Of a stretch of 64,000 nt of DNA, positions 37,714 to 56,955 are shown in pieces; within the stretch, counting starts at the first letter, position 1; each line of letters starts with the position of its first letter. Source of the DNA: Gemmatimonadota bacterium (GTDB lineage Bacteria; Gemmatimonadota; Gemmatimonadetes; Longimicrobiales; RSA9); assembly GCA_040905425.1 (NCBI GenBank), contig JBBDRO010000032.1:93730-157729 (forward strand), read 5' to 3'. The position numbers were made by a program, and so were the translations under genes. The notes below the pieces were generated by a model. The model had not been told where the DNA came from. It ran no database searches and saw only the letters and a list, made by a program, of their open reading frames with translations.

Positions 37714-38925
37714 ATGGAGGCGGCGGAAAGGCTTAGTGTGAAACAGCACTTCGATGTCGATTGCGTGGTCGTGGGCGGCTCGGCCTCGGGGCTCCGGGTG
37801 GCCGCGCTGCTGGCCGCGGGCGGTGCCCGCGTGCAGGTACTGGAGCGGCGGGCGGTCATCGGGGATCTGGAGCGCTCCTGGATCGTGACCGACGCCCTGA
37901 ATCCGGTGCTGGGCTACGACGCCGGCCCGGCCGTGGTCCATCGCACCGGCGTCATGCGGGTGCACGCTGCGGGGCGCCACGCGGACGTGCCGCTCCCCCG
38001 GGCGGACCTGATCGTGGAGCGCGCCCGCATGCTCCCGCTCCTGCGCGCCCGGGCCGAGGCGGCTGGAGCCGACATCCGGACGAACGCACGGGTAACCGGC
38101 ACGGTGCCGGCCGTTGGTGGCTACCGCGTGGAGGTGGAGGGCGGCACGGCGCCGATCCTGACCCGTCACCTGGTGGGTGCGGACGGGGTAAGCAGCGGCG
38201 TGGCCCGCGCGTTAGGTGCGCGGCCGAACCAGGCCGTGCCGGTTGTCCAGGCGCGGGTCCGTCTGCCCGCGGACTTGGACCCGGACGTCACCCACGTCTG
38301 GTTTCAGACACGGCGCACGCGCTTCTTCTACTGGCTGATTCCGGAATCCCCGGAAACGGCCGTGGTGGGGCTCATTGCCAACGGTGCGGGTCAGACCCGG
38401 GGCCCGCTCGACGCGTTCCTGGTCGAGGAGGGTTTCCAGCCGCTGGAGTACCAGGGGGCCATGATCCCGTTGCATCGGCCGCTGCGTCGCATTTCGTGGC
38501 GGCACGGCCGTGCCCGTGCGTTGCTCGTGGGAGACGCAGCCGCGCACGTGAAGGTGACCACGGTGGGCGGACTCGTGTCGGGTCTGTGGGGCGCCAACGC
38601 GGCCGCTCGGGCCCTGCTGGATGGTAAGTCCTACGGGCGTGAGTTGCGCGGCCTGCACGCGGAACTACACCTGCACGACCTCATGCGTTGGGCCCTGGAT
38701 CGCTTCACGGATGCGGATTACGGCCGGCTCGTGGACGCCATACCGGGACGGCTGGCGGACGCGCTGGGCAGCCACAACCGGGACAGTGTGGCAAGCGCGA
38801 AGTGGCATATCCTGAGCGCGCGTCCCGGGGTGCTGCTCCTGGCCGCACGCGCGCTGCTGCGCTTACCACGTGGTAACCATGAAGCCCCGCGGGGGTACCC
38901 ACTGGCACTCGAAGCGGGAGATTGA
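37714..38925 (+). CDS. FAD-dependent oxidoreductase (geranylgeranyl reductase-like)
   Basis: VVVGGSASG, VGADGVSS and LLVGDAAAHVKVTTVGG motifs. Confidence 0.8.
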   Translation: MEAAERLSVKQHFDVDCVVVGGSASGLRVAALLAAGGARVQVLERRAVIGDLERSWIVTDALNPVLGYDAGPAVVHRTGVMRVHAAGRHADVPLPRADLIVERARMLPLLRARAEAAGADIRTNARVTGTVPAVGGYRVEVEGGTAPILTRHLVGADGVSSGVARALGARPNQAVPVVQARVRLPADLDPDVTHVWFQTRRTRFFYWLIPESPETAVVGLIANGAGQTRGPLDAFLVEEGFQPLEYQGAMIPLHRPLRRISWRHGRARALLVGDAAAHVKVTTVGGLVSGLWGANAAARALLDGKSYGRELRGLHAELHLHDLMRWALDRFTDADYGRLVDAIPGRLADALGSHNRDSVASAKWHILSARPGVLLLAARALLRLPRGNHEAPRGYPLALEAGD

Positions 38926-39632
38926 CCATGACGGTTCGGGCCTGGATCCTGGGAGCCACCACGGCCGTCTGGCTCGTGGCCGCTGCCGGCGCGCCGCCGG
39001 TCGCCGGTCAGGTGACCACTCCGATCGCGCCGAATCCGGGCCTGGCCGAGAATTACGTCATCGGGGTGGGCAACGTGCTCCGCCTGGTGTTGCCCGACCG
39101 TGGCGCTTCGTACAGCGGTGACTACGTGGTCGAGGAGGACGGCATGGTCTACCTGCCGCCCTTCGGTGCCGTGGAGGTCGTGGGCCTGACGCTCCCGGAA
39201 TTGCGGGAGCGCCTGCGGACCGATTACCGAGCCCACTTTTCCAACGATCCCGCCGTGGTGGTCACGGTTATGGCCTATTTCATGGCGGCGGTGATGGGTG
39301 AGGTGGCCCAGCCTGGAAACTACCAGCTTCCCGCCGGCTCCACGTCGCTGCAGGCGGTCGCCGCCGCGGGCGGGTTCCGCGACAACGCCAATGAGCGCGG
39401 GACCTACCTGCTGCGCGGTCAGCAGCGCATCGAGCTGGGCGGCATGCCGGCGGACGATGACATGGACACCGAATCCGCCGCCTCGGTGGTGGCGGCGCTC
39501 GGCGCGCACGTGCTGAGTTCGGGGGATGCCGTGGTGGTGCCCCGGGCCAGTTTCACGTGGCTGACGGCAGGCAATCTGTTTACGCTGGCGCAATTCCTGG
39601 TGAGCGTCGTCACCCTGATACGGCTCTTCTGA
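38922..39632 (+). CDS. Polysaccharide export protein (Wza/OPX-like, with SLBB domain)
   Basis: Signal peptide. YVIGVGNVL..V.EDG...LP..G.V.V.GLTL.EL and V.GEV..PG.Y...A.A.AGG motifs. Confidence 0.85.
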   Translation: MTMTVRAWILGATTAVWLVAAAGAPPVAGQVTTPIAPNPGLAENYVIGVGNVLRLVLPDRGASYSGDYVVEEDGMVYLPPFGAVEVVGLTLPELRERLRTDYRAHFSNDPAVVVTVMAYFMAAVMGEVAQPGNYQLPAGSTSLQAVAAAGGFRDNANERGTYLLRGQQRIELGGMPADDDMDTESAASVVAALGAHVLSSGDAVVVPRASFTWLTAGNLFTLAQFLVSVVTLIRLF

Positions 39633-39648
39633 GCACGGGACAGTGGCC

Positions 39649-41997
39649 ATGACGAACCTGAACGGGCCTCCAGCCGGACCGGTACTGCCGGCGTCCGATG
39701 GCCCTGCCGCGCCACCGCGGGTGCGCGAGCATCTGCATGTCCTCAGGCGGCGCTGGTGGATCGTGGCGCTCGTGGCCGTGGCGCTCGTGGCGGGGTCCTG
39801 GTGGCGGCAGCGGGGGCAGGTGCCGCACTACCAGGCCGTGGCATCGGTGAAGACCTCTCCGTACGCGGGTGATTTTCTCAGTGGCGGTTATGCGGCTTGG
39901 TTGGCCAGTGATCCGGCCCAGCTGGCCACACAGGTGCGCATCATCCGCACCCAGGGCGTCCTCGCGCCTGTCGTGGATTCCCTGGGACTGCGCTTTCAGG
40001 TGGAGGGATCCGAATACCAGTTCCACGACGTAGTGGATCGTGCACTCGTGGCGCCGGGCGCACCATCGCAGGGCTATCAGTTGACTTCCGAGCAGGGCCT
40101 GATCGTGTTGCAGGAGCGGGGCACCGGGCGGACGGTGGACGTAGCCTCGGCCCATGTGCTGATCGGTCCCGGGCTGACCCTGTTCCTGAACCCGGACTTC
40201 ACTCCGCCGCAGCCGGTGGCAGTGGCGGTTGTCAGCGCCGACGCGGCGCTCGGGAGGCTGCGCGGCGGCCTGGATGCCTCCCTGGCCCGCAACAGCGTCC
40301 TCATCGACATCGCGTACACGTCGCCCGACTCCATCATGGCGGCGCGCGTGGCCCAGCAGGTGGCCGAGCAGTATCGGTGGCACGCCGGAGGAGAGCTGCG
40401 CCGGAAGGCTCAGGAAACGCTGGACCTGGTGCGCGCCCAACGTGCCGAGTTGGAAGGCACGATGAGCGAGCGGCTCACCGGCGGGTCGGGCGGCAGTTCC
40501 GTCGCGTCGATCTTCGAGCAGAATCTCATGGGCATCGGGGACGCGGAGGCGTCGGCCCGTACGTACGCGGGGCAGGCGGCGATCGTGAGCAGAGCGGTGG
40601 GCATCTATGAGAACACGGGCAACATCGCCGTCCTGACCGCGCTCGGCGAGTTAGTGCCCGGCGCCAGCAGCCTCTACGACCGCCTTGCCGTCCTGCAGCG
40701 GGACCGTCAGCAGGCCATCGAGGATCGCGGTCCGGGCCCGGCCGTGGCCACGTACGACACGCTCATCGTTGCCGCGCGCGATCAGCTGGCCGATCAGGCG
40801 GCGCAGCGGCTGCGTGTGCTCGAGCAGCAGGAGCAAGCGGCTGTGGCCGAGGCCATTCGGTTGCGGCGCGAACAGGACGCGCTCCGTCCCCAGGTGGCCG
40901 TCTCGCAGGGCGTGGACCGGGAGTTGCTGGCGCTCCAGGAGCGGCAGCGCATGCTCTACGAGGAGGAGTTTGAGGCGGAGGTCGAGGCGGCCATCGAGGG
41001 TAGCCCGGTCGAGATCGTCCAACCAGCCGTAGTACCCACGGTGCCGCTGCCCCAGCGTCGCACGCGGACCCTGCTCCTGTCGCTCGTGCTGGGGCTGGCG
41101 CTCGGCATGCTCGCCGCCTTGCTGCTGGAACAGCTCGACACCCGGGTGCGGGACCCGGAGGACGTGCAGCGGTCCGCGGGGGTCGGCGTGATCGGCTTGA
41201 TCCCCGCGCTGCGCGAATCGTCCGGGGGGCGGCCGCTGGCGCTCTCCCAGGCGGAGCAGCAGACGGCCGGTGCGGAAGCATTCCGCAAGCTGCGCACGAA
41301 CCTGCGCTTCATCCGCGCGGAGCGGCCGCAGGTGGTGGCCGTCACCAGCGCGGGCCCGCACGAGGGCAAGAGCGTGCTCTCCGCGAACCTTGCTCTTGCG
41401 CTCGTGCAGCAGCGCTCCCGGGTGCTCCTGGTGGACGGGGACCTGCGCCGTCCGGTGCAGCACACGATCTTCGGACTGAAGCGTGACCCGGGGCTGTCGG
41501 ACGTGCTGGTGGGCATCCTGCCGCCCACCCAGGCCATTCGCAAGGACGTGCAGATCCCCGGGCTCTACGTCATGCCCTGCGGCACCGAGGCGCCGAATCC
41601 GTCGGAACTACTGGGCAGCGAGGAGTTCGTGAATCTACTCAACCAGATGCGCAAGCATTTCGACACCATCATCCTGGACACACCGCCCGTGAACCTGGTG
41701 AGTGACGCCGCCATCGTATCCACGGTGGCCGATGGCACGCTGGTGGTGGTGGACGCCGGCCGCACGGATCGGCACGTGCTGGCCAGTGCCGTGAACGAAT
41801 TGCGGCAGGCGCGGGCCACCCTGCTGGGGGTGGTGCTGAACCGGGTCGACAGCCGGTCGGCCTATGGATACGGATACGGACGCTTCGGACGCTATTATCG
41901 CTCGGGGTACTACAAGACCGAATCCGCGGCCAACGGGGACCGGGAGTGGCGGGAGACGCTCGACTCGCTGTGGCAACAGGTCTCCCCCTACGTCTGA
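39649..41997 (+). CDS. Polysaccharide co-polymerase / BY tyrosine kinase (Wzc-like)
   Basis: Two TM helices and a coiled coil. EAFRKLRTN, TSAGPHEGKS, LVDGDLRRP and DTPP motifs. C-terminal Tyr cluster YGYGYG..YY..YY. Confidence 0.93.
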   Translation: MTNLNGPPAGPVLPASDGPAAPPRVREHLHVLRRRWWIVALVAVALVAGSWWRQRGQVPHYQAVASVKTSPYAGDFLSGGYAAWLASDPAQLATQVRIIRTQGVLAPVVDSLGLRFQVEGSEYQFHDVVDRALVAPGAPSQGYQLTSEQGLIVLQERGTGRTVDVASAHVLIGPGLTLFLNPDFTPPQPVAVAVVSADAALGRLRGGLDASLARNSVLIDIAYTSPDSIMAARVAQQVAEQYRWHAGGELRRKAQETLDLVRAQRAELEGTMSERLTGGSGGSSVASIFEQNLMGIGDAEASARTYAGQAAIVSRAVGIYENTGNIAVLTALGELVPGASSLYDRLAVLQRDRQQAIEDRGPGPAVATYDTLIVAARDQLADQAAQRLRVLEQQEQAAVAEAIRLRREQDALRPQVAVSQGVDRELLALQERQRMLYEEEFEAEVEAAIEGSPVEIVQPAVVPTVPLPQRRTRTLLLSLVLGLALGMLAALLLEQLDTRVRDPEDVQRSAGVGVIGLIPALRESSGGRPLALSQAEQQTAGAEAFRKLRTNLRFIRAERPQVVAVTSAGPHEGKSVLSANLALALVQQRSRVLLVDGDLRRPVQHTIFGLKRDPGLSDVLVGILPPTQAIRKDVQIPGLYVMPCGTEAPNPSELLGSEEFVNLLNQMRKHFDTIILDTPPVNLVSDAAIVSTVADGTLVVVDAGRTDRHVLASAVNELRQARATLLGVVLNRVDSRSAYGYGYGRFGRYYRSGYYKTESAANGDREWRETLDSLWQQVSPYV

Positions 41998-42004
41998 GGT
42001 CGGC

Positions 42005-42295
42005 GTGCTGCGCGTGAGCGACGATTGTGTGGTCCGGGCCGCCCCGACGCAGGTATCGGCCGATCTCGAGGGGGAGGCGGCCGTGCTGGACACGCTGAGC
42101 GGCGTCTACTGGGGTCTGGACGAGGTGGGCGCGGCCGTCTGGCGGCATCTGCGCGAGCCCGTCAGTGTGCTCCGCCTGCGCGATGCCCTGCTGAGCGAAT
42201 TCAACGTGGACCGTGCAGCGTGCGAGCGAGATCTGCTCGGCTTCCTGATGGAACTGCGGGAGGCGGGGCTGCTCGAAGTGACCACGCTGGGTTGA
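42005..42295 (+). CDS. RiPP recognition element (PqqD family), lasso peptide B1
   Basis: 96 aa: 'SADLEGEAAVLD...GVYWGLDEVGAAVW..L....SV..L...L..EF.V.....E.DL..FL.EL...GLL'. GAGG RBS 7 bp after the wzc stop. Confidence 0.92.
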   Translation: MLRVSDDCVVRAAPTQVSADLEGEAAVLDTLSGVYWGLDEVGAAVWRHLREPVSVLRLRDALLSEFNVDRAACERDLLGFLMELREAGLLEVTTLG

Positions 42296-42305
42296 ACGGC
42301 CAGTC

Positions 42306-43310
42306 TCACCCCTCCAGGAACGCCACCAGGGGGTGGTCCGGCTGACTGCGGGTCGGCTGTCCGAACCCCGCGGCGAGCAATAGCTCGGCCACGGTCCCCG
42401 TCTGCCACTCCGCCGCCTGCAGGGCGAGTACCCCACCCGGCTGGAGGTACTCCGCGGCCCGCGGAATGAAACCCCGCAGCAACGCCAGGCCGTCCTGACC
42501 GCCTCCGCTCATGGTCTCCGCCGGCGCGAGCCAGAGGCGGCCACGGGCACGTTCCGCCGCCAGTAACACGGGTGGGAGCCAGGGCAGGTTGGCCGCGATC
42601 AGGTCCACCGTTCCAGCAAGCTCCCGGGGCAGCGGCTCCAGCAAAGACCCCCGCAGGAAGACGGCCCGCTGCAGGTCGAGTCGTCGTGCGTTGGCGCGGG
42701 CGGCCCGGCATGCGCGCGCGGAGGTGTCCGTGCCCCAGACCCGGGCGCGTGGCCGGTAACGCGCCAGCGCCAGGGCCACCGCCCCGCCGCCCGTCCCCCC
42801 GTCCACGGCGCGGGTCTCCCTGTCCGGATCCAGGTGGGCGAGCGCCGTCTTTGCCAGCAGTTCCGTGGTGGGGTTGGGCGCGAAGACGCCGGGCGGGATG
42901 ATCAGGTCAAGGTCCATGAAATGTACGCTGCGCCGGCGTTGCCCGGCCAGGCCAGCACGCAGCAGGGCCGCGATATGGTGGAGGCCATACTGCGCGCGGG
43001 CGGCCCATGGCGCCCCTACACCGATGGGTATCAGCTCGAGCGGCACGCCCTCCCTGATGAGGGCGGCGTCGGCCGGGTCCGCTGAGGGCTGCCAGCCCGC
43101 GGCGCGCAACGCCGCCCGGGCGGGGAGCAGCGCCGCCACCGCCACCTCCACGCGAATCTTCTCCGGATCCTCGGGCGTACGCGCTTCCACCCCCGCGGCG
43201 CGCAGGGCAGCGGCGGCCACCCTCCGCTCGGCACGAACGCGGAGCTGCCACGCCGCCCGCAATCGTGGCAGCGAGAAGCCGGAAGATTCCGGGGAGGCGG
43301 TGTGGGTCAT
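42306..43310 (-). CDS. PrmC/HemK-like SAM methyltransferase with atypical N-terminal domain
   Basis: GVFAPNPTTELL, VDGGTGGGAVALALA, GTDTS, ANLPW (an NPPY variant) and GG.DGL motifs. Confidence 0.85.
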   Translation of the reverse strand: MTHTASPESSGFSLPRLRAAWQLRVRAERRVAAAALRAAGVEARTPEDPEKIRVEVAVAALLPARAALRAAGWQPSADPADAALIREGVPLELIPIGVGAPWAARAQYGLHHIAALLRAGLAGQRRRSVHFMDLDLIIPPGVFAPNPTTELLAKTALAHLDPDRETRAVDGGTGGGAVALALARYRPRARVWGTDTSARACRAARANARRLDLQRAVFLRGSLLEPLPRELAGTVDLIAANLPWLPPVLLAAERARGRLWLAPAETMSGGGQDGLALLRGFIPRAAEYLQPGGVLALQAAEWQTGTVAELLLAAGFGQPTRSQPDHPLVAFLEG

Positions 43311-43371
43311 GATCGGCCAAGGAGCTCGGGTGGCGTTGACCTGAGCGGGCATTTCAAGCTACCGTCCATGC

Positions 43372-43824
43372 ATGCCCTCGCGCACCCCACCCCGCGCCGC
43401 CGAAAGGTGGCCGTTGCGCCGCCTGCTGGCACTGCCACGGATCGAGCGGCGGCTGCTGCTGCGCGCTGCGTGCGCACTATTCCTGGCCCGACGCGCGCTC
43501 CACCCGGTTCGTCGGCGTACGCCATCCCTCCTGGAAACGCGACCGGTGGTGTCCGGTAGGGTGGCCGGTGTCGAACCCGTGGCCGTGGCACTTGCGGTGA
43601 GCCGCGCCGGCCGTTATCTGCCGGGCGAGTGGACCTGCCTCGAGCAGGCGCTGGCGGGGCGCACCCTGCTTGCGGCGTTTGGCAGATCTTCCCGGGTGCG
43701 GCTCGGAGCCGCACGCTCCGCCCCCGGCGGGCAGCGCTTCCATGCCTGGCTCGAATGTGATGGGGTCGTGGTTCTGGGCGGCGATCAGCCGCGCGCCTAC
43801 GTGCCGCTGGACGCACGGCCCTGA
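43372..43824 (+). CDS. Lasso peptide leader peptidase B2 (transglutaminase-like)
   Basis: TCLEQALA (catalytic Cys), VRLG and FHAWLECDG (catalytic His) motifs. 150 aa. Confidence 0.92.
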   Translation: MPSRTPPRAAERWPLRRLLALPRIERRLLLRAACALFLARRALHPVRRRTPSLLETRPVVSGRVAGVEPVAVALAVSRAGRYLPGEWTCLEQALAGRTLLAAFGRSSRVRLGAARSAPGGQRFHAWLECDGVVVLGGDQPRAYVPLDARP

Positions 43825-43859
43825 GGGCCCTCCCTGCGCGCCACGCCACCGGCGCGCCC

Positions 43860-45008
43860 GTGAATCCCACCGATCACCTGCCCCTGCTCGCGGCCGCCGC
43901 GGCCCCGGGTGCCGCCGCGCGGGTGCGCTTCCACCGCCTGGCCGGGTCACTGGATCCGGAGCAGTGGCCTGCGGTGCTCGATGCCGCGGAGCGCCACCGG
44001 CTGCGTCCGCTGCTCCACCGTGCGCTCCAACGTACGACCGGCCTGGTCCCTTTTGCGGCGCAGGAATCCCTGGCCGAGGCGGTGCGCCACGACGCCGTCC
44101 TGGCGCTGGCCGCGCTCCGCGAGGGCCGGGCGGCGGCCGCGCTCCTGGCAGAGGCGGGAATCGCCTCGCTGGCGCTGAAGGGGCCGGTGCTGGCGTGCGC
44201 CCTCCACGGGGACCCTGCGCTGCGTGCCGCCGGGGACTTCGACCTGCTGGTGGCGCGGCGCCATGCCGCCCGCGCCGGCGCGCTGCTGGCCGACGGGGGC
44301 TGGGCGTGCGCCGTTCACCTGACGCCCCGGATGGCCGCCTCCCACTTGCGCACGCAGCATGAGCTGCCGTTTCGCCGGGGCGCGGCGCCCGTCCTGGAAC
44401 TCCACTGGGCCGTGGCCCAGCGGCACTGGGCGGTGCCGCTCGCGGCCGAGGCACTCCTGACGCGTGCACAGCCGGCGGGCCCGGGAGAAGCCTTCGGCCA
44501 GCCGAGCACGGAGGACCGGCTCCTGCTGGCGTGTATCCACGGGGCGCGGCACCGCTTCGCCACGCTGGACCTGCTCGCGGACGTGGCGGGCTGCGTGGCC
44601 CTCGGCGGCATCGACTGGAACAGGCTGTGGGCGGAAGCGGAGCGCGCGGGGGTGCGGCGCATTGTGGCCGTGGCGCTGGCCGTGGCGGAGCGCACCATGG
44701 ACGCCCGCCTGCCTGCCGCGGCCGGACGGCCGTTGTCGATAGATCGGACCGGAGGCCTGCTGGCCGCGCGGGCCGCGGAGCGCCTCGAGCGGGGCGTCGG
44801 CCCCGTGACCGGGTGGCGCGGGTTACGGGCCGAGTTGCTACTGCGCGAGCGCCGCGCGGACCGGGTACGCCGCCTGGGGCGGCTCGCGCTCACCCCTACC
44901 GCCGGGGACTGGGGCTGGGTGCGCCTGCCGGACCCCCTCCATCCGCTCTACCACGCGCTCCGTCCGGTCCGCCTGCTGGGTGTGGCCTGGGGTCGTCTGC
45001 GCAGCTGA
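43860..45008 (+). CDS. Nucleotidyltransferase (NTP_transf_5 family), lasso-cluster associated
   Basis: LALKGPVL, R..GDFDLLV, LELHW and C.HG.RH....L..L.D motifs. Confidence 0.88.
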   Translation: MNPTDHLPLLAAAAAPGAAARVRFHRLAGSLDPEQWPAVLDAAERHRLRPLLHRALQRTTGLVPFAAQESLAEAVRHDAVLALAALREGRAAAALLAEAGIASLALKGPVLACALHGDPALRAAGDFDLLVARRHAARAGALLADGGWACAVHLTPRMAASHLRTQHELPFRRGAAPVLELHWAVAQRHWAVPLAAEALLTRAQPAGPGEAFGQPSTEDRLLLACIHGARHRFATLDLLADVAGCVALGGIDWNRLWAEAERAGVRRIVAVALAVAERTMDARLPAAAGRPLSIDRTGGLLAARAAERLERGVGPVTGWRGLRAELLLRERRADRVRRLGRLALTPTAGDWGWVRLPDPLHPLYHALRPVRLLGVAWGRLRS

Positions 45009-45016
45009 GGACGCGC

Positions 45017-45967
45017 TCAGCGCTCTGCCGGCACCTCCACCAACGCCGCCACCCGCGCGGCAAAGCCCGGCAGCAACTCCAGTCCCCGGGGCGGCCGGGC
45101 GTGCCACACGGGAATCCGTGCCGCGCAGGCGGCGGCGGCCAGTTGACGGCGCAGGCGGTCCGGGTCCGTGACCACCCGGTTGAAGGTGGCCGCGAGGAGT
45201 GCGCGGACCGCCTGCCCCCCCCGGACCCGCTCGGGCGGGCCGCCCCTGTCCCCGGGGAGAGCGAGTGTCACCCATGCCCGGAGCGGCACGTCCGTCCGCA
45301 CGGCGCGGGGCACGGCGTACGCCCGCTTGGCGCTGTCCGGATGGAGGAGGACGCTGGCGCTTGACGGCAGTCCCAGAAGCAGCTCCGCAGCCTCCGGAAA
45401 CAGCTTCAAGCGCGCGGGTCCGGCGCGGGCCATCCGGCTGCCGGGGGCCAGCACCAGGACATCATCCGTCACGAGCCGGCCGCCGGCGGCCAGGAGCGCC
45501 GCGGCCAGCGTGGACTTGCCCACGCCCGGGGGGCCGGTGAGCGCCACGGCTCCCGCAGGCAGTGCCACCACCGTGGCGTGATAGGGCTCCAGGCCGCGTG
45601 CCACGAGGGAGAAGGACAGGAGCTGGGCATAGAGGTAGCCCGCCAGGGCGGCAGGCGCCGCGGGGGCCAGCGGGGCCACGCGGAGGCGGGCTCCGGCCGG
45701 GTCCGTGCGCGCCAGCAGCAGGTCGCGCCAGCGGAGCAGGAAGCCACCGTCCGCCGTGTCCTGCCAGGCCGCGTCCCCCATGACCCGCCACGCATCGTTC
45801 GTCGGCTGCAACCCCGCCGCCGGCACGGCGCGGATCACCACGTCCGGAGGGCCCTCCTCGAAAGCGGCGTCGGGGAAGGGCCACGGGCTCTCCACGGAGA
45901 GGCCGTAGACGCGGAAGCGGTGGGCGGCTGAAGGCGGACGGGGTGCGGACGTTGCGGGACGCCTCAG
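45017..45967 (-). CDS. HPr-kinase-like Ser/Thr kinase (lasso tailoring)
   Basis: FRVYGL N-terminus, YHATVV, Walker A GPPGVGKST, LVTDD. Start uncertain (CTG 45967 or GTG 46078). Confidence 0.85.
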   Translation of the reverse strand: MRRPATSAPRPPSAAHRFRVYGLSVESPWPFPDAAFEEGPPDVVIRAVPAAGLQPTNDAWRVMGDAAWQDTADGGFLLRWRDLLLARTDPAGARLRVAPLAPAAPAALAGYLYAQLLSFSLVARGLEPYHATVVALPAGAVALTGPPGVGKSTLAAALLAAGGRLVTDDVLVLAPGSRMARAGPARLKLFPEAAELLLGLPSSASVLLHPDSAKRAYAVPRAVRTDVPLRAWVTLALPGDRGGPPERVRGGQAVRALLAATFNRVVTDPDRLRRQLAAAACAARIPVWHARPPRGLELLPGFAARVAALVEVPAER

Positions 45968-46143
45968 AAGCGCGTGAACCCGCCGCCGGTCTTGGAGGGC
46001 TGCTCCTTGCTGGCGCCGCCCCCGCCGCGGGTGAGTTCCGCCAGGTCCCCCCAGCGCGTCAGGGTCGGCCGGACCCACGGCTTGAGCGGACGCTCCGGGC
46101 CGGGGGATGCCTCACGCGCCGGCGGTTCGGGTGCTTCGGCCAT
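45964..46143 (-). CDS. Lasso peptide precursor (59 aa)
   Basis: MAEAPEPPAREASPGPERPLKPWVRPTLTRWGDLAELTR|GGGGASKEQPSKTGGGFTRF. WxxPxL..xG....T(-2) leader, Gly1 and Glu8. GGAG RBS. Starts 2 bp after the cyclase stop. Confidence 0.9.
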   Translation of the reverse strand: MAEAPEPPAREASPGPERPLKPWVRPTLTRWGDLAELTRGGGGASKEQPSKTGGGFTRF

Positions 46144-46145
46144 GC

Positions 46146-48038
46146 TCACTCCAGGGGATCCGACGTGACGAAGGCGCGCAGCCAGAGCTCCAGGCCCAGG
46201 GCCGCGAGGAGCGGAGCCGCGGCGCGCGTACGTCCAATTTCGCTGGCCGCGTGCAGCCGCGCCAGTTCCGCGTCCAGTCCGGCGGTGTCCAGGTAGCCGG
46301 CCCGCACGGCTGCGCCGTGGCTCAGCAGGCGCGCGAGTGGCTCGGCGGCCCCGGCCATGGCTGCATGAAACAGACCGGTGGCGTTGCCCTTGTCGCGGCG
46401 GGCCAGGATGGCGTCGGGCACGATGCCCCGCAGCCCGTCCCGCAGGATGCCCCGGGGGACCCCCTGCGGTGCCGCGGCCGTGCCGGGAAGCCCCGCCAGG
46501 AAGACCAGCAGGTCCTCGTCGGCGAAGGGCGGCAGGAGCGTGAGGCCGTGCGCGGCGCATCCCTTGACGCCCCATTCCATACGCAGCGTGTTGAAGGGCA
46601 GTCGCACCGCTTCCAGGACGGCTGCGCCGTGGGAGCTGATGCCGCGTACGGCCGCCGCTTGCCGGTCGCCGGTGCCCGCTGGCGCGGCCGCATCCGGCGG
46701 CGTCGGGCTGGTCCCATGCGGCAGCCGTGCCGCGCGGAGGCGCTCACCCCAGAGGGAGCTGCCCTTCCGCCGCTGTCGGAGCGGTGCCAGCAGTGCCCGG
46801 CGCGCCCGCAGCAGACGTCCGGGCAGCAGCTGGCGCGCCAGTTCCTCCAGTGCGGCCCGATGCAGCACGGCGGCGGGGACGTCCGCGTGCCAGCGCGGCA
46901 TCTCCAACAGGTGCCGCGCCAGGGTGGGAAGCCGCCCGGCGCGGAGCAGTTCGGCCAGGTAGGCGGGCGGATTCGGAAACAGCACCTGGTCCCCGAGTCC
47001 GCCGGACAGGATGATTGCCGCCCCGTGCTCGCGGGCCGCCGTGAGCGCACGGGTGGCCGGGCCGGGGGCAAAGCCCACTGCCGGTGCCTCGCTCTCCAGG
47101 ACCTCGTCCATGGACTCGGCCGGAAAGCCGCCCGGCTCCGCCGGCACGCGTATCACCGCCTCACCCCAGCGCTCCTCCAGGACCCGGAGCCAGGCTGTCT
47201 CATCGGCCGCCGAGCCGTCCGCGGTGCCGTGATAGACGCCGAAGGCCGGCGGGAAGCGCGCAGGATCGCGGGCGTGCAGCATGCGCGCCACGCTGTAGAC
47301 GGCGGACGAGTCGATGCCGCCGGAGAGCAACACGGCCACCGGTGCGGGACCCACCAGGCGGCGGGCGACCGCCGCTACGAAACGATCGCGGAACGAGATG
47401 GCCGCGGCTGCCGGATCCAGTTGCAGGGCCGGGACCTGAAACGCCCGCGCCCGATCGATGTTCAGGCCCCGTTCGTGGGCCAGCAGATAGTGGCCGGGGG
47501 GCAGCGCCCGGACCTCCTTCAGGAACGTGACCGAGGCCGGGAAGGTACGCGTGCCCAGGAAGAGTTCGGCCAGCGCGGGGTCATCCGGCGTGCGGTCCAC
47601 CGCGCCGTGCGCCAGCACGGCCCGCACGGTCGTGGCGAACACCACGCCTCCCGGTAGCTCCGCCCAGTAGAGCGGCCGGGTGCCGACCAGGTCTCTGGCC
47701 AGCAGCAGCCTACCGTCGGCGATCACGGCCAGGGCATAATCACCGCGCAGCTCCGCGGCGAGCGTCGCGCCGCTCGTGCGCAGCGCGGCGGGCAGGGAGT
47801 CGGCCGCGCCCGCCAGGCGGCCCGAGAGTGCCCACGCCTCCCCTGGCTGAGCCGTCCCTACGGATGACGGTCCGTTGCTCCAACCGCTCCACGGACCGGG
47901 GGCAGTGGCCAGGCCCGCACCGGGCAGCAAGGCGATGCCGGCTGCCGATCCGCCTGGCAGAGCCGCGGCCATGCGCTCGAGTGCGGCGGGGTCCACGGCC
48001 CGGCCGTGGCCGTACCAGATGCCTGCGAATGCGCTCAA
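46146..48038 (-). CDS. Lasso peptide cyclase (asparagine synthetase-like, C protein)
   Basis: Starts MSAFAGI with no Ntn Cys. RDLVGTRPLY, LLSGGIDSS, LSGGLGDQ, PF.D..L and R.ILR....G.VPD.I..R.DK motifs. Adjacent to the precursor. Confidence 0.9.
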   Translation of the reverse strand: MSAFAGIWYGHGRAVDPAALERMAAALPGGSAAGIALLPGAGLATAPGPWSGWSNGPSSVGTAQPGEAWALSGRLAGAADSLPAALRTSGATLAAELRGDYALAVIADGRLLLARDLVGTRPLYWAELPGGVVFATTVRAVLAHGAVDRTPDDPALAELFLGTRTFPASVTFLKEVRALPPGHYLLAHERGLNIDRARAFQVPALQLDPAAAAISFRDRFVAAVARRLVGPAPVAVLLSGGIDSSAVYSVARMLHARDPARFPPAFGVYHGTADGSAADETAWLRVLEERWGEAVIRVPAEPGGFPAESMDEVLESEAPAVGFAPGPATRALTAAREHGAAIILSGGLGDQVLFPNPPAYLAELLRAGRLPTLARHLLEMPRWHADVPAAVLHRAALEELARQLLPGRLLRARRALLAPLRQRRKGSSLWGERLRAARLPHGTSPTPPDAAAPAGTGDRQAAAVRGISSHGAAVLEAVRLPFNTLRMEWGVKGCAAHGLTLLPPFADEDLLVFLAGLPGTAAAPQGVPRGILRDGLRGIVPDAILARRDKGNATGLFHAAMAGAAEPLARLLSHGAAVRAGYLDTAGLDAELARLHAASEIGRTRAAAPLLAALGLELWLRAFVTSDPLE

Positions 48039-48270
48039 GGGCCGTGGGGTTCGGGGGCACGTCTGCCCTGCGGCAGCAGCGTGCCGCAAGGGTACGCCGG
48101 GTACGCCCGCCGCGAAAGCGTCGGGCAGGCGGCAGGTGGCGGAAATCCGGCAATACGGGGTCCGCCGCCGGTGGACGCGCGTCGGGTGCCGACGTACGGA
48201 AGCGCCGCCCGGTCCTCCGGACGACGCCCCGTTCTCCCACGGCGGCCGTGGCCGTCGCTCCCCGGGAGGG

Positions 48271-48990
48271 TTACTGGATAATGAGCGGCAGGATGGTGGA
48301 GCGGGCCTGCTCCAGAGTGATGGAGCTTGGAGCAGTCTCCACGACCGGCTCGCCGTTTCCGGCCAGGCCAACGCCAATCAGGAAGGCAGCGGCCACCAGC
48401 GCTGTGGCTGCGACTGCCTGCACGCGGCGATAGCGAGGGCGGGGGCGGCGCGGGCTCGCCTCCATCAGCAGCACCACCGGACGCGGCGGCTCGGCACGTA
48501 ACGCGGCCGCCCCGAAGGTGGCCACCGACCACGACTCATCGACCCGCTCACCGGTCAGCGGCTCGTCCTCCGAGGGCAGCATCGTGACGCAGCCGGCCGT
48601 GGTCAGGTCGCGGCCGCGGGTGATGCCCGCCACCAGCGCGTCGAGCTCGAAGAGCTGGAACGGCTTGAGCAGGTATCCGGCCGCACCCTGCTCGAGCGCG
48701 CGGCGCGCGGTGGCCTCGTCCGTGTCCCCGGTGACGAAGACCACCGGCTGTTCCGGAACCTGCTCGTGAATGAAGCGTGCGAGTGCCACCCCTGATTCCC
48801 CGGGCAGGTGGATATCCGTCACCACGAGGTCGAAGCGGGGGGTGTGGTCCGGAAAGGAACGCTGCGCCGTGGCCGCGTCGCCTGCCTCAGCCACATCGAA
48901 GCCGTTGCGGACGAAATGGCGCACGAGCAACCGGCGCACGGCCGTATCGTCCTCCACGATGAGAATGCGGCGTTGCCGTGACTCGATCAT
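48271..48990 (-). CDS. Response regulator: receiver domain plus C-terminal TM segment
   Basis: ILIVEDD, DLVVTDIHLPGESG, VTG and YLLKPF motifs, then VAATALVAAAFLIGVGLAG. Confidence 0.85.
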   Translation of the reverse strand: MIESRQRRILIVEDDTAVRRLLVRHFVRNGFDVAEAGDAATAQRSFPDHTPRFDLVVTDIHLPGESGVALARFIHEQVPEQPVVFVTGDTDEATARRALEQGAAGYLLKPFQLFELDALVAGITRGRDLTTAGCVTMLPSEDEPLTGERVDESWSVATFGAAALRAEPPRPVVLLMEASPRRPRPRYRRVQAVAATALVAAAFLIGVGLAGNGEPVVETAPSSITLEQARSTILPLIIQ

Positions 48991-49055
48991 GCTGACACTC
49001 TTCCCGTGGAAGGGGATGGATGCCGCCGGAAGCGGCGCGATTGATACGTATCTAT

Positions 49056-49071
49056 TGCCAGGTGCGTGCCC
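49056..49071 (-). promoter_or_regulatory. Putative sigma54 promoter
   Basis: GGGCACGCACCTGGCA (GG-N10-GC, GGCACG intact), ~65 bp upstream of the response regulator. Confidence 0.5.
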
Positions 49072-49255
49072 GAGCTCACCGATGCTTCGGAGCCGTTGCG
49101 GCGCAGGGGTTATCATCGAATCCTCGCTGCCCGGCGGCGGCCCCGGGTATGTTCAAAATCCGGACGTCCCCGGTAGTATGCAGCGTGGAGATCAGTGAGG
49201 ACGCCACGAAATAGACACATGTCCGATAACCGGATACTGTAGGGAATCCATACAC

Positions 49256-49942
49256 ATGCACATCGTCGCCACCGATCTGCTCACGTGTCCGCGTTGCGGA
49301 CCTTCGTTCGGCCTCATCCTGCTGGCCGACAGGGTCAGCGAGCGGCGCGTGCTCGCAGGTATGCTGGGCTGCTCGAACTGCAGGGAGCGCTGGCCCATCA
49401 CCGGCGGTCTGGCGCGGCTGGGTACGGGGGTCGCGCCATGGGCGGAAGGTGCGCGGGGGGACGCGCCGGGCCGCCCGCCCGGGCACGCGCGGCCCCGCGT
49501 CCCTCTGGATGGCGACGCTCACGCCGGCGGCGCCGATGCGGACTCCGGCGGCACCTGGGCGGCGCTCATGGGTGTGACCCAGGGGCCGGCCTTCGTCCTG
49601 GTGGCGGGCGGGGCCGTGGCGGTGGCCGGCGCCGTCGCGGACCTGGTCGAGCGATTGGAGGTGCTGGCGGTGGGACCCGGCGCGGCGGACCTGCCCGAGC
49701 GCGCCGGGGTGAGTCGGTTGGAGGCCGGCGCCCGCCTGCCACTGGCCACAGGGAAGATTGCGGCCGCCACGCTGACCGGGCCCGCGGCGGATGCCTGGCT
49801 CGAGGAAGCCTCCCGCGCCCTGCGGCCCACCGGCCGGCTGGTGCTCTCCCCTGTGCCCCTGGATGCCGATGCCCGGCTGGCGGCCGCAGGCTGCAGGGTC
49901 ATGGCGCGCGAAGCCACCACGTTGATCGCACTCCGGGAGTAA
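49256..49942 (+). CDS. Trm112-like zinc-binding domain plus degenerate methyltransferase-like domain
   Basis: DLLTCPRCG...GMLGCSNCRERWPITGG, then RLPLA...LEEASRALRPTGRLVL. Confidence 0.65.
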   Translation: MHIVATDLLTCPRCGPSFGLILLADRVSERRVLAGMLGCSNCRERWPITGGLARLGTGVAPWAEGARGDAPGRPPGHARPRVPLDGDAHAGGADADSGGTWAALMGVTQGPAFVLVAGGAVAVAGAVADLVERLEVLAVGPGAADLPERAGVSRLEAGARLPLATGKIAAATLTGPAADAWLEEASRALRPTGRLVLSPVPLDADARLAAAGCRVMAREATTLIALRE

Positions 49943-53327: not shown

Positions 53328-54068
53328 ATGGTGAGACGCAGTACACGCGCGCGGGTGGCCGCGGAGGCGGGCGGCACGCCGCCCGGTGGGGTGGCGGATG
53401 CACAGGAGAATGGCATGGTGGACGGCCACGCAGCGGACGCAGATGGAGCCCCGCGCACCAACGGGCGCCTGGAGGAGGCGCGCCGTCTGGCCGCGGATGG
53501 AGAGCTGGACGCGGCCATCGAAGCGTACCGCGCCCTGGTGGTGGCCGAACCGGCGCTGGTGGTTGCCCGCCTCGAGATGGGGCGCCTGCACGCCGCGCGC
53601 GAGGAGCACCTTCTGGCGCTCGAGCAGTTCGAGGCCGCCCGCGGCGCGGAGCCCGACAATGTCCACGCGCTCGAAGCGGTTGCGCTGGCGCAGGCCGCGC
53701 TGGGCCATTTCGACGCGGCGGAGAAGCCGTTGCGCCGCATCCTGCGCCTGCAGCCAGACCACGCGGCCGCCCACGGCCACCTGGGCATGGTGAGCTTCCG
53801 GCGGGGACTGTACGCCGAGGCGGAGGCAGATCTGAAGCGCGCGCTGGAGCTGGATCCCGAACTGGCCGCCGCCTATTTCTACCGCGGTGAGGCGCTGAAC
53901 CAGCTCGGCCGGGTGGACGAGGCCCTCGAGATGCTGGAGCTGGCGGTCCAGCTGAACCCCACGAACGCACGCGCCTTCTACGTCATGGGCATCGTCTATG
54001 ACAAGAAGGCTCGGCCGCAGGAGGCGGGCGCCATGTACCGCAAGGCGCGGGAGGTCGCGGCCGGGTGA
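53328..54068 (+). CDS. Tetratricopeptide repeat protein
   Basis: About 6 TPR motifs. Confidence 0.88.
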   Translation: MVRRSTRARVAAEAGGTPPGGVADAQENGMVDGHAADADGAPRTNGRLEEARRLAADGELDAAIEAYRALVVAEPALVVARLEMGRLHAAREEHLLALEQFEAARGAEPDNVHALEAVALAQAALGHFDAAEKPLRRILRLQPDHAAAHGHLGMVSFRRGLYAEAEADLKRALELDPELAAAYFYRGEALNQLGRVDEALEMLELAVQLNPTNARAFYVMGIVYDKKARPQEAGAMYRKAREVAAG

Positions 54069-54601
54069 TGCGGGTGCGCATAGCCGACCTGAGCGTGGTG
54101 GTGGCGGAAGCCATTCTGCGGCCGGTGGCGGCCGACTGGGGCGCCGCCACGCCCGCCTCGCGACGGGTGGAGATGCTGGCGGGGCCCGCCCTGGACGAGC
54201 AGTGCCGCCGCCTGGGGGAGTGTCCCGTCGGCTCGGCCGTGCTCACTACGGCGGGGAAGCTGCGCGCAACCTACCTCATCAACGTGGTGGTGCGCTCGCT
54301 GGACGAGCCCGTCTCCAAGTCCGGGGTCGAGCGCGGTCTGAGGAACGGGCTCCGCCGGGTGACCGAGTACGCGCTCCGCTCCGTGGCGGTGGCGCCGCTC
54401 GGCACGGGCGCGGGCAACCTGGACGCCGAGGAGGCCGCGCGCGTCATGGTGCCGCTGCTGCTGGAGTATCTGGGTACGGTGGACGAGCCGGCGGAGATCG
54501 AGGTGGTGGTGGACAACGAGTACGAACGGGATGCCTTCGAGGCGGTCGCGCGCAGCTTCGAACTGCCGTTCCTGGCCACGCAGCGGGAGGTGGAAGAGTG
54601 A
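54068..54601 (+). CDS. Macro domain protein (degenerate)
   Basis: ADLS...EAIL, GSAVLTTAGKL...YLINVV and SVAVAPLGTGAG motifs. Lacks the canonical N..L..GGG loop. Confidence 0.8.
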   Translation: MRVRIADLSVVVAEAILRPVAADWGAATPASRRVEMLAGPALDEQCRRLGECPVGSAVLTTAGKLRATYLINVVVRSLDEPVSKSGVERGLRNGLRRVTEYALRSVAVAPLGTGAGNLDAEEAARVMVPLLLEYLGTVDEPAEIEVVVDNEYERDAFEAVARSFELPFLATQREVEE

Positions 54602-54617
54602 TGCGGGAGGTGGAGGC

Positions 54618-56171
54618 GTGAGGCGGCTGCCGACCGGACGCCTGCTGGGCGTGGCCATTCTCGTGGGATGGGCCACGGTCGTGGGCTTCCATGTCAAGCG
54701 TGAGTATTTCAAGTCCGACGCCGTGCGGCTGGCGGAAGGCGCGGCCATGCTCGCGGCGGGCACGCATTTCTACACGGTGCTCATGGACAGCGTGGCCATC
54801 GGCTTCTCCAGCACGCGGCTGGATACGATGCCCGATGGCTTCTACTTCGAAGACTTCATCAGGCTGGACATCCCGGCCATGGGCGAGCTCCAGCAGGCGG
54901 TGGTGCAGACGCGCATCAACCTCAGCCACACGCTCTCCCTGCGTGATTTCCGCTTCATCCTGAACTCCGAAATCGGTGCGTTCGAGGCCAGCGGGGAGAT
55001 GACCGGAGACTCCACGCTCACGGTGCGCCTGGGCGCCGACGGGCAGGGGCAACCCTCAAACGTGGAGCTGCCGTCCGGCGCGCTGCTGGACGCGGCCGTC
55101 CCCCTGCGTATGGCGGCGGCCGGCGCGCTGCGGGCCGGTAACGCGGTGAGCGCCATCGTCTTCGATCCGTCTTCCATGTCCACCCGCGAGCTGGAGATCC
55201 GGGTGAGCGCCGTGGACACCATGATCGTGCCGGACAGCGCGCGCTACGACGAGGCCACGGAGCGCTGGGTGGTGCAGGTCTATGACACCGTCCCGGTGTG
55301 GCGTCTGGAGCAGAGCTACGGCTCGGTCGGTGTGTCCACCTGGGTGGACAACGACGGCATGGTGGTGCGCGCGGAGAGCCCGCTCGGCTTCGTCATCCAG
55401 CGCACCGCCTACGAGCTGGCCGACCAGGCGTTCGAGGCCAGCCGCGCTTCCCCCCGGATGGCCGAGGGCTACGGCGTGCTGATCGAGCGCACCGCCATCG
55501 CGGCCAACGCCGACCTGAGCGACGTGGCCGCGGCGCCGCGGCTGGCCGTGCGCCTGCTGGACGTGGAGCTGGAGGGGTTCGATCTGGCCGGCGGACGTCA
55601 GGCTCTGCGCGGCGACACGCTGGTGGTGACGCGGGAGCCGGAGTCCGTCCTGACCGCGGGGGCCGCGGGGTACACGCTCCCCTACACGGGCGGGGGCGCC
55701 GCCGGGGAGGAACTCGGCGCCACGCCGCTCATCCAGGCGGAGGACCCGCGCATCCGCGCCGCCGCGCTGGAGGCGGTGGGCGGCACCACCGATCCAGCGC
55801 TGGCAGCGCGGCGGCTGACGGACTGGGTGTACGAGTACATCGACAAGAACATCACCCTGAGCGTGCCTAGCGCGCTCCAGGTGCTCGAGGCCGCCGAGGG
55901 GGACTGCAACGAGCACACGGTGCTGTACGTGGCCATGGCCCGCTCGCTCGGCCTGCCCACGCGCACCGCCGTGGGCCTGGTGCAGATCGACGGGCGCTTC
56001 TACTACCACGCATGGCCGGAAGTCTGGTTGGACGGGGACTGGGTGGCGGTGGATCCCACGCTCGGCCAGGTCCCCGCGGACGCCAGCCACCTGCGCTTCC
56101 TCGTGGGCGGGCTGGCGCGCCAGGTGGAACTCATCCGCCTCATCGGCAGACTCGGACTGGAGGTCGTGTGA
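54618..56171 (+). CDS. Membrane-anchored transglutaminase-like protein
   Basis: N-terminal TM helix. GDCNEH, YHAWPEV and VDPT (Cys-His-Asp triad). Confidence 0.85.
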   Translation: MRRLPTGRLLGVAILVGWATVVGFHVKREYFKSDAVRLAEGAAMLAAGTHFYTVLMDSVAIGFSSTRLDTMPDGFYFEDFIRLDIPAMGELQQAVVQTRINLSHTLSLRDFRFILNSEIGAFEASGEMTGDSTLTVRLGADGQGQPSNVELPSGALLDAAVPLRMAAAGALRAGNAVSAIVFDPSSMSTRELEIRVSAVDTMIVPDSARYDEATERWVVQVYDTVPVWRLEQSYGSVGVSTWVDNDGMVVRAESPLGFVIQRTAYELADQAFEASRASPRMAEGYGVLIERTAIAANADLSDVAAAPRLAVRLLDVELEGFDLAGGRQALRGDTLVVTREPESVLTAGAAGYTLPYTGGGAAGEELGATPLIQAEDPRIRAAALEAVGGTTDPALAARRLTDWVYEYIDKNITLSVPSALQVLEAAEGDCNEHTVLYVAMARSLGLPTRTAVGLVQIDGRFYYHAWPEVWLDGDWVAVDPTLGQVPADASHLRFLVGGLARQVELIRLIGRLGLEVV

Positions 56172-56184
56172 CCCGGGAGCGTTC

Positions 56185-56955
56185 ATGATCCGGCTGGAAG
56201 GCGTGATGAAGCGCTACGGGCAGTTCACCGCCGTGCACCCGCTCGACCTGCACGTGCGCCGCGGTGAGCTGTTCGGCTTCCTGGGTCCGAACGGCGCGGG
56301 CAAGACTACCACCATCCGCATCGTGACGGGCGTGCTGCGGCCCACGGCGGGTGCGCTCAGCATCGGCGGTGTGGACATGCTGCGCGACCCGGTCACGGCC
56401 AAGCGCCACATCGGCTACATCCCGGACCGGCCCGCCCTCTACGAGAAGCTCACCGGGCGGGAGTTCCTGCGTTTCACGAGCGGCCTCTGGGGCCGTTCCG
56501 GGCCGGCCGCGGAGGAGCGAGCTGACGAGCTGCTCGAACTCTTCGAACTCTCCGCCTGGGCGGACACCGTCATCGAGAGCTACAGCCACGGCATGCGCCA
56601 GAAGATCCTCATCTCCTCGGCGCTGGTGCACTCGCCCGACGTAATCGTGGTGGACGAGCCCATGGTGGGGCTGGATCCCAAGGCGGCGCGCCTCATCAAG
56701 GAGCTGCTGCGCACCTTCGCGGAGCAGGGCGGCACGGTCTTCCTCTCCACGCATACGCTGGAGGTGGCGGAGACGCTCTGCGACCGCATTGCCATCCTTC
56801 TCGAGGGCCGGATCCGCGCCATGGGCACCATGACCGAGTTGCGCCGCGAGGCCGAGATCGGCACCGCCGGTCTGGAAGACGTCTTCCTGAAGCTCACCGG
56901 CACGGAGAACGTGCAGGAGCTGGTCAGTTCGCTGCGCCGCGCCGAAGCCGGATGA
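56185..56955 (+). CDS. ABC transporter ATP-binding protein
   Basis: GPNGAGKTT, YSHGMRQK, VVDEP and STH motifs. Confidence 0.93.
   Translation: MIRLEGVMKRYGQFTAVHPLDLHVRRGELFGFLGPNGAGKTTTIRIVTGVLRPTAGALSIGGVDMLRDPVTAKRHIGYIPDRPALYEKLTGREFLRFTSGLWGRSGPAAEERADELLELFELSAWADTVIESYSHGMRQKILISSALVHSPDVIVVDEPMVGLDPKAARLIKELLRTFAEQGGTVFLSTHTLEVAETLCDRIAILLEGRIRAMGTMTELRREAEIGTAGLEDVFLKLTGTENVQELVSSLRRAEAG

Follow-up and report, generated by a model that had tools for sequence, protein, structure and literature searches.

The DNA analysed here, a 64,000-nucleotide stretch of a Gemmatimonadota genome (assembly GCA_040905425.1, contig JBBDRO010000032.1, positions 93,730 to 157,729; hereafter the window), carries seven genes on alternating strands which, we hold with high confidence, form a real lasso peptide biosynthetic cluster. 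They encode the precursor (A), a leader-binding protein (B1), a leader peptidase (B2) and a lasso cyclase (C), accompanied by a kinase (K), an NTP_transf_5 nucleotidyltransferase and a PrmC-like methyltransferase. This is the gene set that an earlier note had claimed for positions 42005–48038; all seven genes are found at or within these limits, and family matches bear out both the minimal machinery and the three putative tailoring enzymes. The reading frames of all seven are backed by codon-position GC content. GC content is 0.73–0.77 across the cluster, against about 0.68–0.72 in most of the window and 0.62 in its final 2 kb. A scan of positions 41500–49300 for promoters and terminators returned no promoter-like and one terminator-like site, with no excess over shuffled sequences. 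We consider it likely that this is an intact class-II-type lasso cluster in a Gemmatimonadota genome, belonging to a large clade of kinase- and nucleotidyltransferase-bearing clusters and encoding an inferred triple tailoring of the peptide.

The core machinery is recognisable from curated families. B1 (42005–42295, plus strand, GTG start) is a PqqD-like RiPP (ribosomally synthesised and post-translationally modified peptide) recognition element (RRE) of 96 residues that matches PF05402 (PqqD, E 7.7e-16) and scores 56.9 bits against the lasso model NF033536 (lasso_PqqD_Bac), under the cut-off of 80 bits. B2 (43372–43824, plus strand, 150 residues) is a transglutaminase-like cysteine protease with both the Cys (WTCLEQ) and the His (FHAWLE) visible in the translation. 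It matches PF13471 (E 1.8e-16), and its 63.6 bits against the curated model for lasso B2, NF033537 (lasso_biosyn_B2), exceed the cut-off of 33, which places it in the lasso peptidase family as anticipated. The asparagine-synthetase-like cyclase (46146–48038, minus strand, TTG start, 630 residues) matches PF00733 (E 2.5e-34) and scores 131 bits against NF033535, under the cut-off of 525 bits. Its match to GATase is only partial and weak, the Cys2 position of AsnB is not a Cys (the N-terminus reads ...SAFAGIW), and the SGGIDS PP-loop is retained. A sequence search of the PDB gave a sole match for the cyclase, hydroxyamidotransferase 7ylz (E 1.3e-13). A FastTree phylogeny of 54 proteins, in which 32 cyclases with a homologous kinase gene next to theirs are compared with 22 AsnB-like proteins, no characterised lasso cyclase being included, places the window cyclase and an 85%-identical relative (P0002, from metagenome contig L011) inside the 32-member lasso-context clade. 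This clade is split from the AsnB-like proteins with a Shimodaira–Hasegawa (SH)-like support of 99, in agreement with the earlier claim that the enzyme is distinct from glutamine-dependent AsnB.

The precursor gene (45964–46143, minus strand, 59 codons) begins 2 nt past the cyclase stop, with a GGAG 5 nt ahead of its ATG. The encoded peptide (stored protein P0335, MAEAPEPPAREASPGPERPLKPWVRPTLTRWGDLAELTRGGGGASKEQPSKTGGGFTRF) consists of a leader (residues 1–39) and a 20-residue core (residues 40–59) with Gly1, Glu8 and a C-terminal Phe, and the predicted product is a 20-residue lasso with a Gly1–Glu8 ring. Both ring residues suit the pattern expected of lasso cores, in which Gly, Ala, Ser or Cys comes first and Asp or Glu stands at position 7–9. 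Residues 23–39 (W-V-R-P-T-L-T-R-W-G-D-L-A-E-L-T-R) match the leader motif (Y/W)-x-x-P-x-L-x3-G-x5-T-x, with Trp in place of the motif's Tyr and Thr at position −2; a relative (P0337) has Tyr at the position of the Trp. The leader model NF033521 (lasso_leader_L3) is passed at 23 bits (cut-off 19). Two close relatives of the precursor, 86% and 59% identical, were found. Across four natural variants, core residues G1–G4, K7, E8, Q9, P10, S11, K12, G14, F17, T18, R19 and F20 are invariant and positions 5, 6, 13, 15 and 16 vary. In some variants the hydroxyl of positions 6 and 13 is lost: L011 carries Asn6, and P0337 carries Leu6 and Gly13. Ser11 and Thr18 are the only invariant hydroxyls of the four window-type variants, all of which end in Phe and lack a C-terminal Ser. 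The core is therefore unlike those of paeninodin-type precursors, as had been claimed, since the latter end in a conserved Ser that is the phosphorylation site.

A putative HprK-like peptide kinase is encoded on the minus strand from 45017 to about 45922, where its conserved part starts. Its matches to curated families are weak (PF07475, 23.7 bits against a cut-off of 33.3; TIGR04352, 37.5 bits against 200), and a sequence search of the PDB returned P-loop stretches only. An exhaustive HMMER search with the kinase recovered 10,639 cluster representatives with E <= 0.001, a set that shrinks to 1,343 when the limit is lowered to 1e-10 and to 44 at 1e-30, and the protein is 22–42% identical (partial matches) to kinases of the Paenibacillus, Bacillus and Sphingomonas loci that were fetched. 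All 34 sequences of an alignment share residues H115, K136, D153 and D154; this His-Lys-Asp-Asp set is described as essential in lasso kinases in passages of PMC9266682 and PMC10368454. The N-terminal strand of the kinase includes Y6 and G7, which are conserved in at least 90% of the aligned sequences. From the HRFRVYG stretch on, the start of the gene differs from that in L011 only synonymously, which indicates that the strand is coding. Only two canonical start codons are in frame. The GTG at 46078 falls within the precursor gene, with which initiation there would create an overlap of 115 nt in a different frame; the GTG at 45895 comes past the conserved strand. A CTG ahead of the strand overlaps the TGA stop of the precursor (C-T-G-A).

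The nucleotidyltransferase (43860–45008, plus strand, 382 residues) is a clear member of PF14907 (E 2e-45, 155.7 bits), and a PDB sequence search with it gave no match. It retains K107-G108 and D126-x-D128. Among 15 homologues from related loci G108 and R122 are invariant, and K107, D126 and D128 are at least 90% conserved. By analogy with PsmN, which according to passages of PMC9266682 adds hexoses to phospho-Ser, the enzyme should extend the phosphate installed by the kinase.

The closest characterised systems share parts of this gene set. Paeninodin-type clusters (with kinases PadeK, ThcoK and SyanK) likewise have a split B1/B2 and a cyclase, and their HprK-like kinase carries the His-Lys-Asp-Asp residues, but they also have a dedicated ATP-binding cassette (ABC) exporter (D), whereas the window cluster is without an ABC transporter. 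The psm cluster of Bacillus pseudomycoides, which encodes pseudomycoidin, shares the pairing of a kinase with a PF14907-type nucleotidyltransferase but differs in its C-terminal Ser site, the absence of a methyltransferase and its Firmicute host. Portions of PMC9266682 and PMC8498205 describe the lasso kinases characterised by then as modifying the linear precursor at a conserved Ser at its C-terminus. That a lasso kinase can act elsewhere than on the C-terminal Ser is shown by the bsf cluster of Bradymonas sediminis FA350, in which K and N genes are present and BsfK phosphorylates an internal Ser3, as stated in parts of PMC10368454. The window precursor departs from this type in having Thr(−2) rather than Ile/Val (Ile(−2) in the Bsf leader) and Gly at position 3 rather than a phosphorylated Ser/Thr. 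Ring phosphorylation as in BsfA can be dismissed for the window type, given that the L011 variant has neither Ser nor Thr at ring positions 1–8.

The kinase and nucleotidyltransferase mark a large, apparently uncharacterised lasso clade found mainly in metagenome-assembled genomes (MAGs) of Acidobacteriota and Gemmatimonadota. A profile scan with a 10-sequence kinase alignment, covering one genome per species, recovered 258 relatives, and the analysis was confined to the best 80 among them. Most of these 80 are MAGs of Acidobacteriota, Vicinamibacterales, Gemmatimonadota, Nitrospirota and Rokuibacteriota, with weaker matches in Paenibacillus, Bacillus and Sphingomonas. By tblastn, 67 of the 80 loci carry the cyclase, 53 B1, 49 the nucleotidyltransferase and 36 B2, while all five genes co-occur in 23; these counts are lower bounds because many of the contigs are short. 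The gene order C-A-K is repeated in dozens of loci, and an ABC-2 transporter pair is often present in related loci. No paper characterising the clade was found in the literature searched, a search with subscription papers and supplements outside its scope.

Precursors of the clade point to a different class of kinase substrate. A strict leader regular expression identified 53 precursors in 46 loci, the window and L011 counted, of which only 4 have a C-terminal Ser whereas 39 carry T-[R/K] in the tail. The motif usually reads (K)P-x-T-[R/K] at positions 15–17 (P-x-T-[R/K] in 30 cores), and its Thr lies 7–10 residues past the ring acceptor. The residue three positions past the acceptor is mostly Gly, not Ser. 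T-[R/K] occurs in 37 of 51 distinct non-window cores compared with 14.6 ± 2.8 (maximum 25) across 2000 tail shuffles, a test that overstates significance because the related sequences are not independent. That the motif keeps its position along the core is nevertheless evident from the precursors themselves. The tail motif together with the rarity of a C-terminal Ser sets the clade apart from lasso kinases acting on that residue, and it is likely that the window kinase acts on the tail of its precursor and not on a C-terminal Ser.

Several related loci have features of their own. Two precursors with different cores stand beside one cyclase and one kinase in seven loci (L024, L027, L030, L041, L054, L065 and L067). 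GHMP-kinase and CarboxypepD_reg-domain genes recur beside kinase-type lasso clusters in three Vicinamibacterales loci (L038, L043 and L049), and a LanC-like gene lies near the cluster in L037.

The feature that separates the window cluster from this clade is its methyltransferase gene (42306–43310, minus strand, 334 codons; alternative ATG at 43352), which sits between B1 and B2. The protein scores 121.9 bits against TIGR03534 (PrmC), where the equivalog cut-off is 199.1. The true PrmC of the genome is encoded elsewhere and scores 251.4 bits in a genome search that gives the cluster gene 122.4 bits. The cluster enzyme is hence a PrmC paralogue, and its identity as the housekeeping PrmC can be discarded. 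The PrmC_N domain (PF17827) was not found in it by family search, and a 125-residue N-domain stands in its place. The catalytic domain (residues 126–334) is modelled by AlphaFold2 with a predicted local distance difference test (pLDDT) score above 90. Its top Foldseek matches are the PrmC/HemK structures 2b3t, 1nv8 and 1t43 (E about 1e-13), followed by HEMK2/KMT9 and PrmA, so that the enzyme resembles PrmC/HemK in catalytic fold, best family match and N-x-P-aromatic motif. Lower matches include the gentamicin methyltransferase 5u1e and the carbamoyl N-methyltransferase 9l4q. Residues T173, G174, G176, D195, N241 and P243 are invariant in the methyltransferase alignment, and both the class I S-adenosylmethionine (SAM) motif G-x-G-x-G and the (N/D)-x-P-aromatic motif are present. 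The latter reads N-L-P-W; N-L-P-Y is also found in PrmC_N-bearing proteins. A complex prediction of the methyltransferase with the precursor scored 0.00, which weighs neither for nor against binding.

We consider the enzyme to be probably a fusion of a nucleotidyltransferase-fold module, without the catalytic Asp pair, to a PrmC-type N-methyltransferase. In an ESM Atlas comparison of the modelled residues 8–108, in which each row stands for one family set from the 30 nearest models, all 10 listed rows are nucleotidyltransferase-type clusters (TM-score 0.53–0.60, normalised by query), and two of them reach the bar for PF14907. The Atlas feature scores are 0.75 for the window N-domain and, against a PF14907 cluster, 0.87 for the N-terminal part of a related protein (P0125), both under the 0.9 level and to be taken as leads only. 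Relatives of a longer form align over their N-terminal 170 residues to the NTP_transf_5 profile with an hhalign probability of 81% (E 1.2e-5), the Asp-x-Asp position being gapped; Asp-x-Asp is likewise absent from residues 1–125 of the window protein. BLASTP of the N-domain against the nucleotidyltransferase of the same cluster gave no match, and a Pfam search with the N-domain alone at E <= 10 returned noise only.

Such methyltransferases are rare. A single close relative, 83% identical, was found among 5.8 billion proteins. Across 400 other genomes of the phylum, no match covers residues 1–125 and 6 genomes match the methyltransferase domain alone at 38–41% identity; by tblastn, no PrmC-like methyltransferase was detected in any of the 80 related loci. 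A quick IQ-TREE phylogeny built from 46 methyltransferase domains joins the window protein and P0122 to P0125, P0130 and a Chloroflexota protein (genome G591) with an SH-like approximate likelihood ratio test (SH-aLRT) value of 97. The Chloroflexota gene also belongs to a lasso cluster, in which the kinase, B2, nucleotidyltransferase and methyltransferase genes (K-B2-NT-MT) are opposed by A-C-B1 on the other strand. This cluster (L118, G591:C3:364500-384000, about 6700–12700) encodes a long-form methyltransferase, and its precursor apparently has a core that starts with Gln by the usual leader spacing and has no Asp/Glu at positions 7–9.

Methyltransferases of other kinds do occur in the clade. 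A scan of 136 extra open reading frames from 50 related loci identified a Methyltransf_25-type enzyme in 6 loci and a PrmA-family match in 5, four of which (L056, L058, L067 and L100) are marked as PRMT-like by PRMT_C while L048 has the PrmA-family match alone. These enzymes indicate that some methylation is common in the clade, the PrmC type being rare. The earlier view of an undescribed, multiply modified lasso peptide is supported, with the reservation that the kinase/nucleotidyltransferase pair, often joined by some methyltransferase, is standard equipment in a large clade; the PrmC-like methyltransferase is what is specific to the locus. O-methyltransferases are the only lasso methyltransferases described in portions of PMC9266682 and PMC8498205; those reported in the former are the C-terminal carboxyl O-methyltransferases LasF and StspM and the PIMT homologues of cellulonodin-2 and lihuanodin. 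These are O-methyltransferases of other families and the window enzyme is of the N-methyltransferase (PrmC/PrmA/MTS) type; SAM-dependent tailoring of a lasso peptide is what they would have in common. PrmC-type tailoring of lasso peptides was not found by title or abstract in the literature searched. The matches listed for N-methyltransferases in connection with lasso peptides concern borosins or cacaoidin or are reviews.

Kinase, nucleotidyltransferase and methyltransferase domain all retain their catalytic or cofactor motifs, and we propose the following pathway. The leader would be bound by B1, after which the linear precursor would be phosphorylated by the kinase, likeliest at Thr18 in the invariant F-T-R-F and alternatively at Ser11. 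The nucleotidyltransferase would attach a group to the phosphate, in analogy to PsmN. The methyltransferase, docked through its nucleotidyltransferase-fold-like N-domain without DxD, would N-methylate a side-chain nitrogen, for which the amide of the invariant Gln9 beside the ring-forming Glu8 is the candidate and Lys7 and Lys12 are alternatives. B2 would then cleave after Thr-Arg, and C would form the Gly1–Glu8 isopeptide ring around the tail. Calculated monoisotopic masses are 1924.939 for the linear core, 1906.929 for the lasso after loss of water, 1986.895 with HPO3 added and 2000.911 with a further CH2, to which the addition by the nucleotidyltransferase would come.

The steps of this pathway are not equally probable. 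Thr18 is favoured as the phosphorylation site because Thr18-Arg19 fits the clade motif T-[R/K], and we give this predicted site an even chance of being the right one. That the methyltransferase acts on the peptide is, on balance, probable. Gln9 is our best guess for its target because a Gln after the acceptor is specific to the subfamily and because of the kinship of the enzyme with PrmC: it directly follows the ring acceptor in all four window-type precursors as opposed to none of 49 other acceptor-bearing cores, where the residue is Gly (37), Ala (5), Pro (3), Asn (3) or Ser (1). The assignment is tentative, and more probably wrong than right. Taken jointly, the proposal would combine two chemistries unreported for the lasso class, namely a side-chain N-methyl-Gln9 and a phospho-Thr18 that is extended by the nucleotidyltransferase and serves as a steric lock of the thread. 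The methyltransferase would stem from a small cross-phylum clade derived from PrmC in which a catalytically dead copy of the fold of the cluster's own nucleotidyltransferase is used for docking the peptide. As a whole we regard this combination as speculative and improbable.

A number of observations weigh against the interpretation offered here, in addition to the relatedness of the sequences behind the shuffle test. No product, transcript or activity has been observed, and the family scan detected no ABC exporter or isopeptidase within about 8 kb of the cluster. The matches of both the kinase and the methyltransferase fall under curated family cut-offs, and the corresponding labels given in the earlier note are sustained by wider homology and gene context but not by these scores. 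No canonical start codon lies just upstream of the conserved N-terminal strand of the kinase, and the window cyclase and its relative sit on a very long branch (1.65) in the FastTree tree, a position prone to long-branch artefacts. The N-domain of the methyltransferase has an AlphaFold2 pLDDT below 50, and its profile reaches an hhalign probability of only 0.4% against the 15 cluster nucleotidyltransferases and 0.2% against the long-form methyltransferases. Fourteen of 51 other cores hold a Gln somewhere with no PrmC-like methyltransferase nearby, and both the Thr18 and the Gln9 assignments rest on conservation in only four closely related precursors plus analogy.

Other sites and substrates for the tailoring enzymes can be considered. 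Phosphorylation of Ser11, within the invariant K-E-Q-P-S-K, would leave the terminal T-R to function in threading or as a plug only. Ser11 is unchanged in the four variants, and the use of an internal Ser by BsfK, as reported in part of PMC10368454, shows that lasso kinases are capable of this. Across the clade, however, the conserved hydroxyl is the Thr of (P-x-)T-[R/K], and most other cores have Gly instead of Ser three residues past the acceptor, so that we judge Ser11 to be a rather unlikely site. The methyltransferase might also modify the group installed by the nucleotidyltransferase, for instance an amino group of a phosphate-linked sugar or base, with the N-domain bringing it to the site. 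The resemblance of that domain to the NTP_transf_5 fold (by Atlas for the window protein and by profile for the long-form relatives) would suit such a role, as would the small-molecule N-methyltransferases 5u1e and 9l4q among the lower structural matches and the co-occurrence of the placeable relatives of the methyltransferase clade with a nucleotidyltransferase. Its best sequence and fold matches are, by contrast, protein glutamine methyltransferases; methylation of the adduct is in our opinion quite unlikely. Side-chain methylation of the peptide remains our preferred reading of the methyltransferase.

Two further explanations concern the cluster as a whole. It could be a silent or decaying acquisition that yields no mature product, a history to which the lack of a nearby transporter, the odd kinase start, the interleaved gene orientation, the GC content above that of the surroundings and the patchy distribution would all be suited. 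Against this, the seven frames are open and the catalytic motifs are retained, the cyclase, precursor, kinase and nucleotidyltransferase are 85–87% identical to those of an independent metagenome contig, the kinase start shows synonymous substitutions and conservation extends to the precursor core. We judge decay very unlikely. The notion that the AsnB-like gene belongs to the adjacent polysaccharide locus as an ordinary amidotransferase, with lasso-like genes beside it by chance, draws on what lies directly upstream, a glycosyltransferase/Wza/Wzc locus of 20 kb in which a true AsnB is encoded. That AsnB has full GATase domains, to which the cluster protein has only a partial and weak match, and both the cyclase tree and the C-A-K order recurring in dozens of loci contradict a chance neighbourhood, which we consider extremely unlikely. 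A real lasso cluster remains the preferred interpretation.

Lasso peptides attract interest as stable scaffolds, and the enzymes that tailor them do so as tools for peptide engineering. The locus offers a compact seven-gene test case for the widespread kinase/nucleotidyltransferase lasso clade with its likely internal Thr site, and supplies a candidate side-chain N-methyltransferase for lasso peptides. It also raises the possibility that a nucleotidyltransferase catalytic fold has taken on a new role, that of recognising the substrate instead of an RRE. The main interest of the locus lies in the class of internal T-[R/K] sites and in a methyltransferase derived from PrmC, the remainder being ordinary; should these predictions fail, the locus would be one more ordinary lasso cluster of an uncultured lineage.

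The Gemmatimonadota host that had been suggested for the cluster is supported by RpoB, which is 73–74% identical to that of two Gemmatimonadota/Gemmatimonadales MAGs and 55–56% identical to that of Acidobacteriota, Vicinamibacterales and Nitrospirales MAGs. The papers listed for lasso peptides in the phylum are of survey type. Close relatives of the cluster are few. The cyclase has one, 85% identical, among 5.8 billion proteins, and the genes for C, A, K and the nucleotidyltransferase recur in window order, at 85–87% identity, on metagenome contig L011, which then ends. Of 40 genomes that share the family or the order, one (the unpublished G016) encodes a 39%-identical cyclase, the remaining matches being at AsnB level. 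These results indicate a patchy distribution. A search for sequencing runs that contain the DNA listed none of RNA and five of DNA, from two studies, and two of the five may be the source sample.

The cluster is flanked by genes of other functions. Directly upstream lies the polysaccharide locus of about 20 kb (21520–41997), which encodes an ABC ATPase, six glycosyltransferase-domain proteins and a Bac_transf sugar transferase, as well as a Wza-like Poly_export/SLBB protein (38922–39632) and a Wzc-like chain-length/tyrosine-kinase protein (39643–41997). The true glutamine-dependent AsnB is encoded at 21520–23589 (full GATase domains, E 5.5e-34). The Wzc-like gene ends 7 nt ahead of the GTG start of B1 on the same strand, and B1 may be co-transcribed with the polysaccharide locus because of this short gap and shared orientation. 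No ABC domain was detected by family scan between 25767 and 56185. Further downstream, at 54065–58849, are genes for a macro-domain protein, a large transglutaminase-core protein and an ABC_tran/ABC_tran_2 pair, with no evidence tying them to the lasso genes. A gene at 48271–49116, upstream of the cyclase and on the same strand, encodes a response-regulator receiver domain followed by a C-terminal hydrophobic stretch, and is kept at the corresponding place in L011 (8919–9767).

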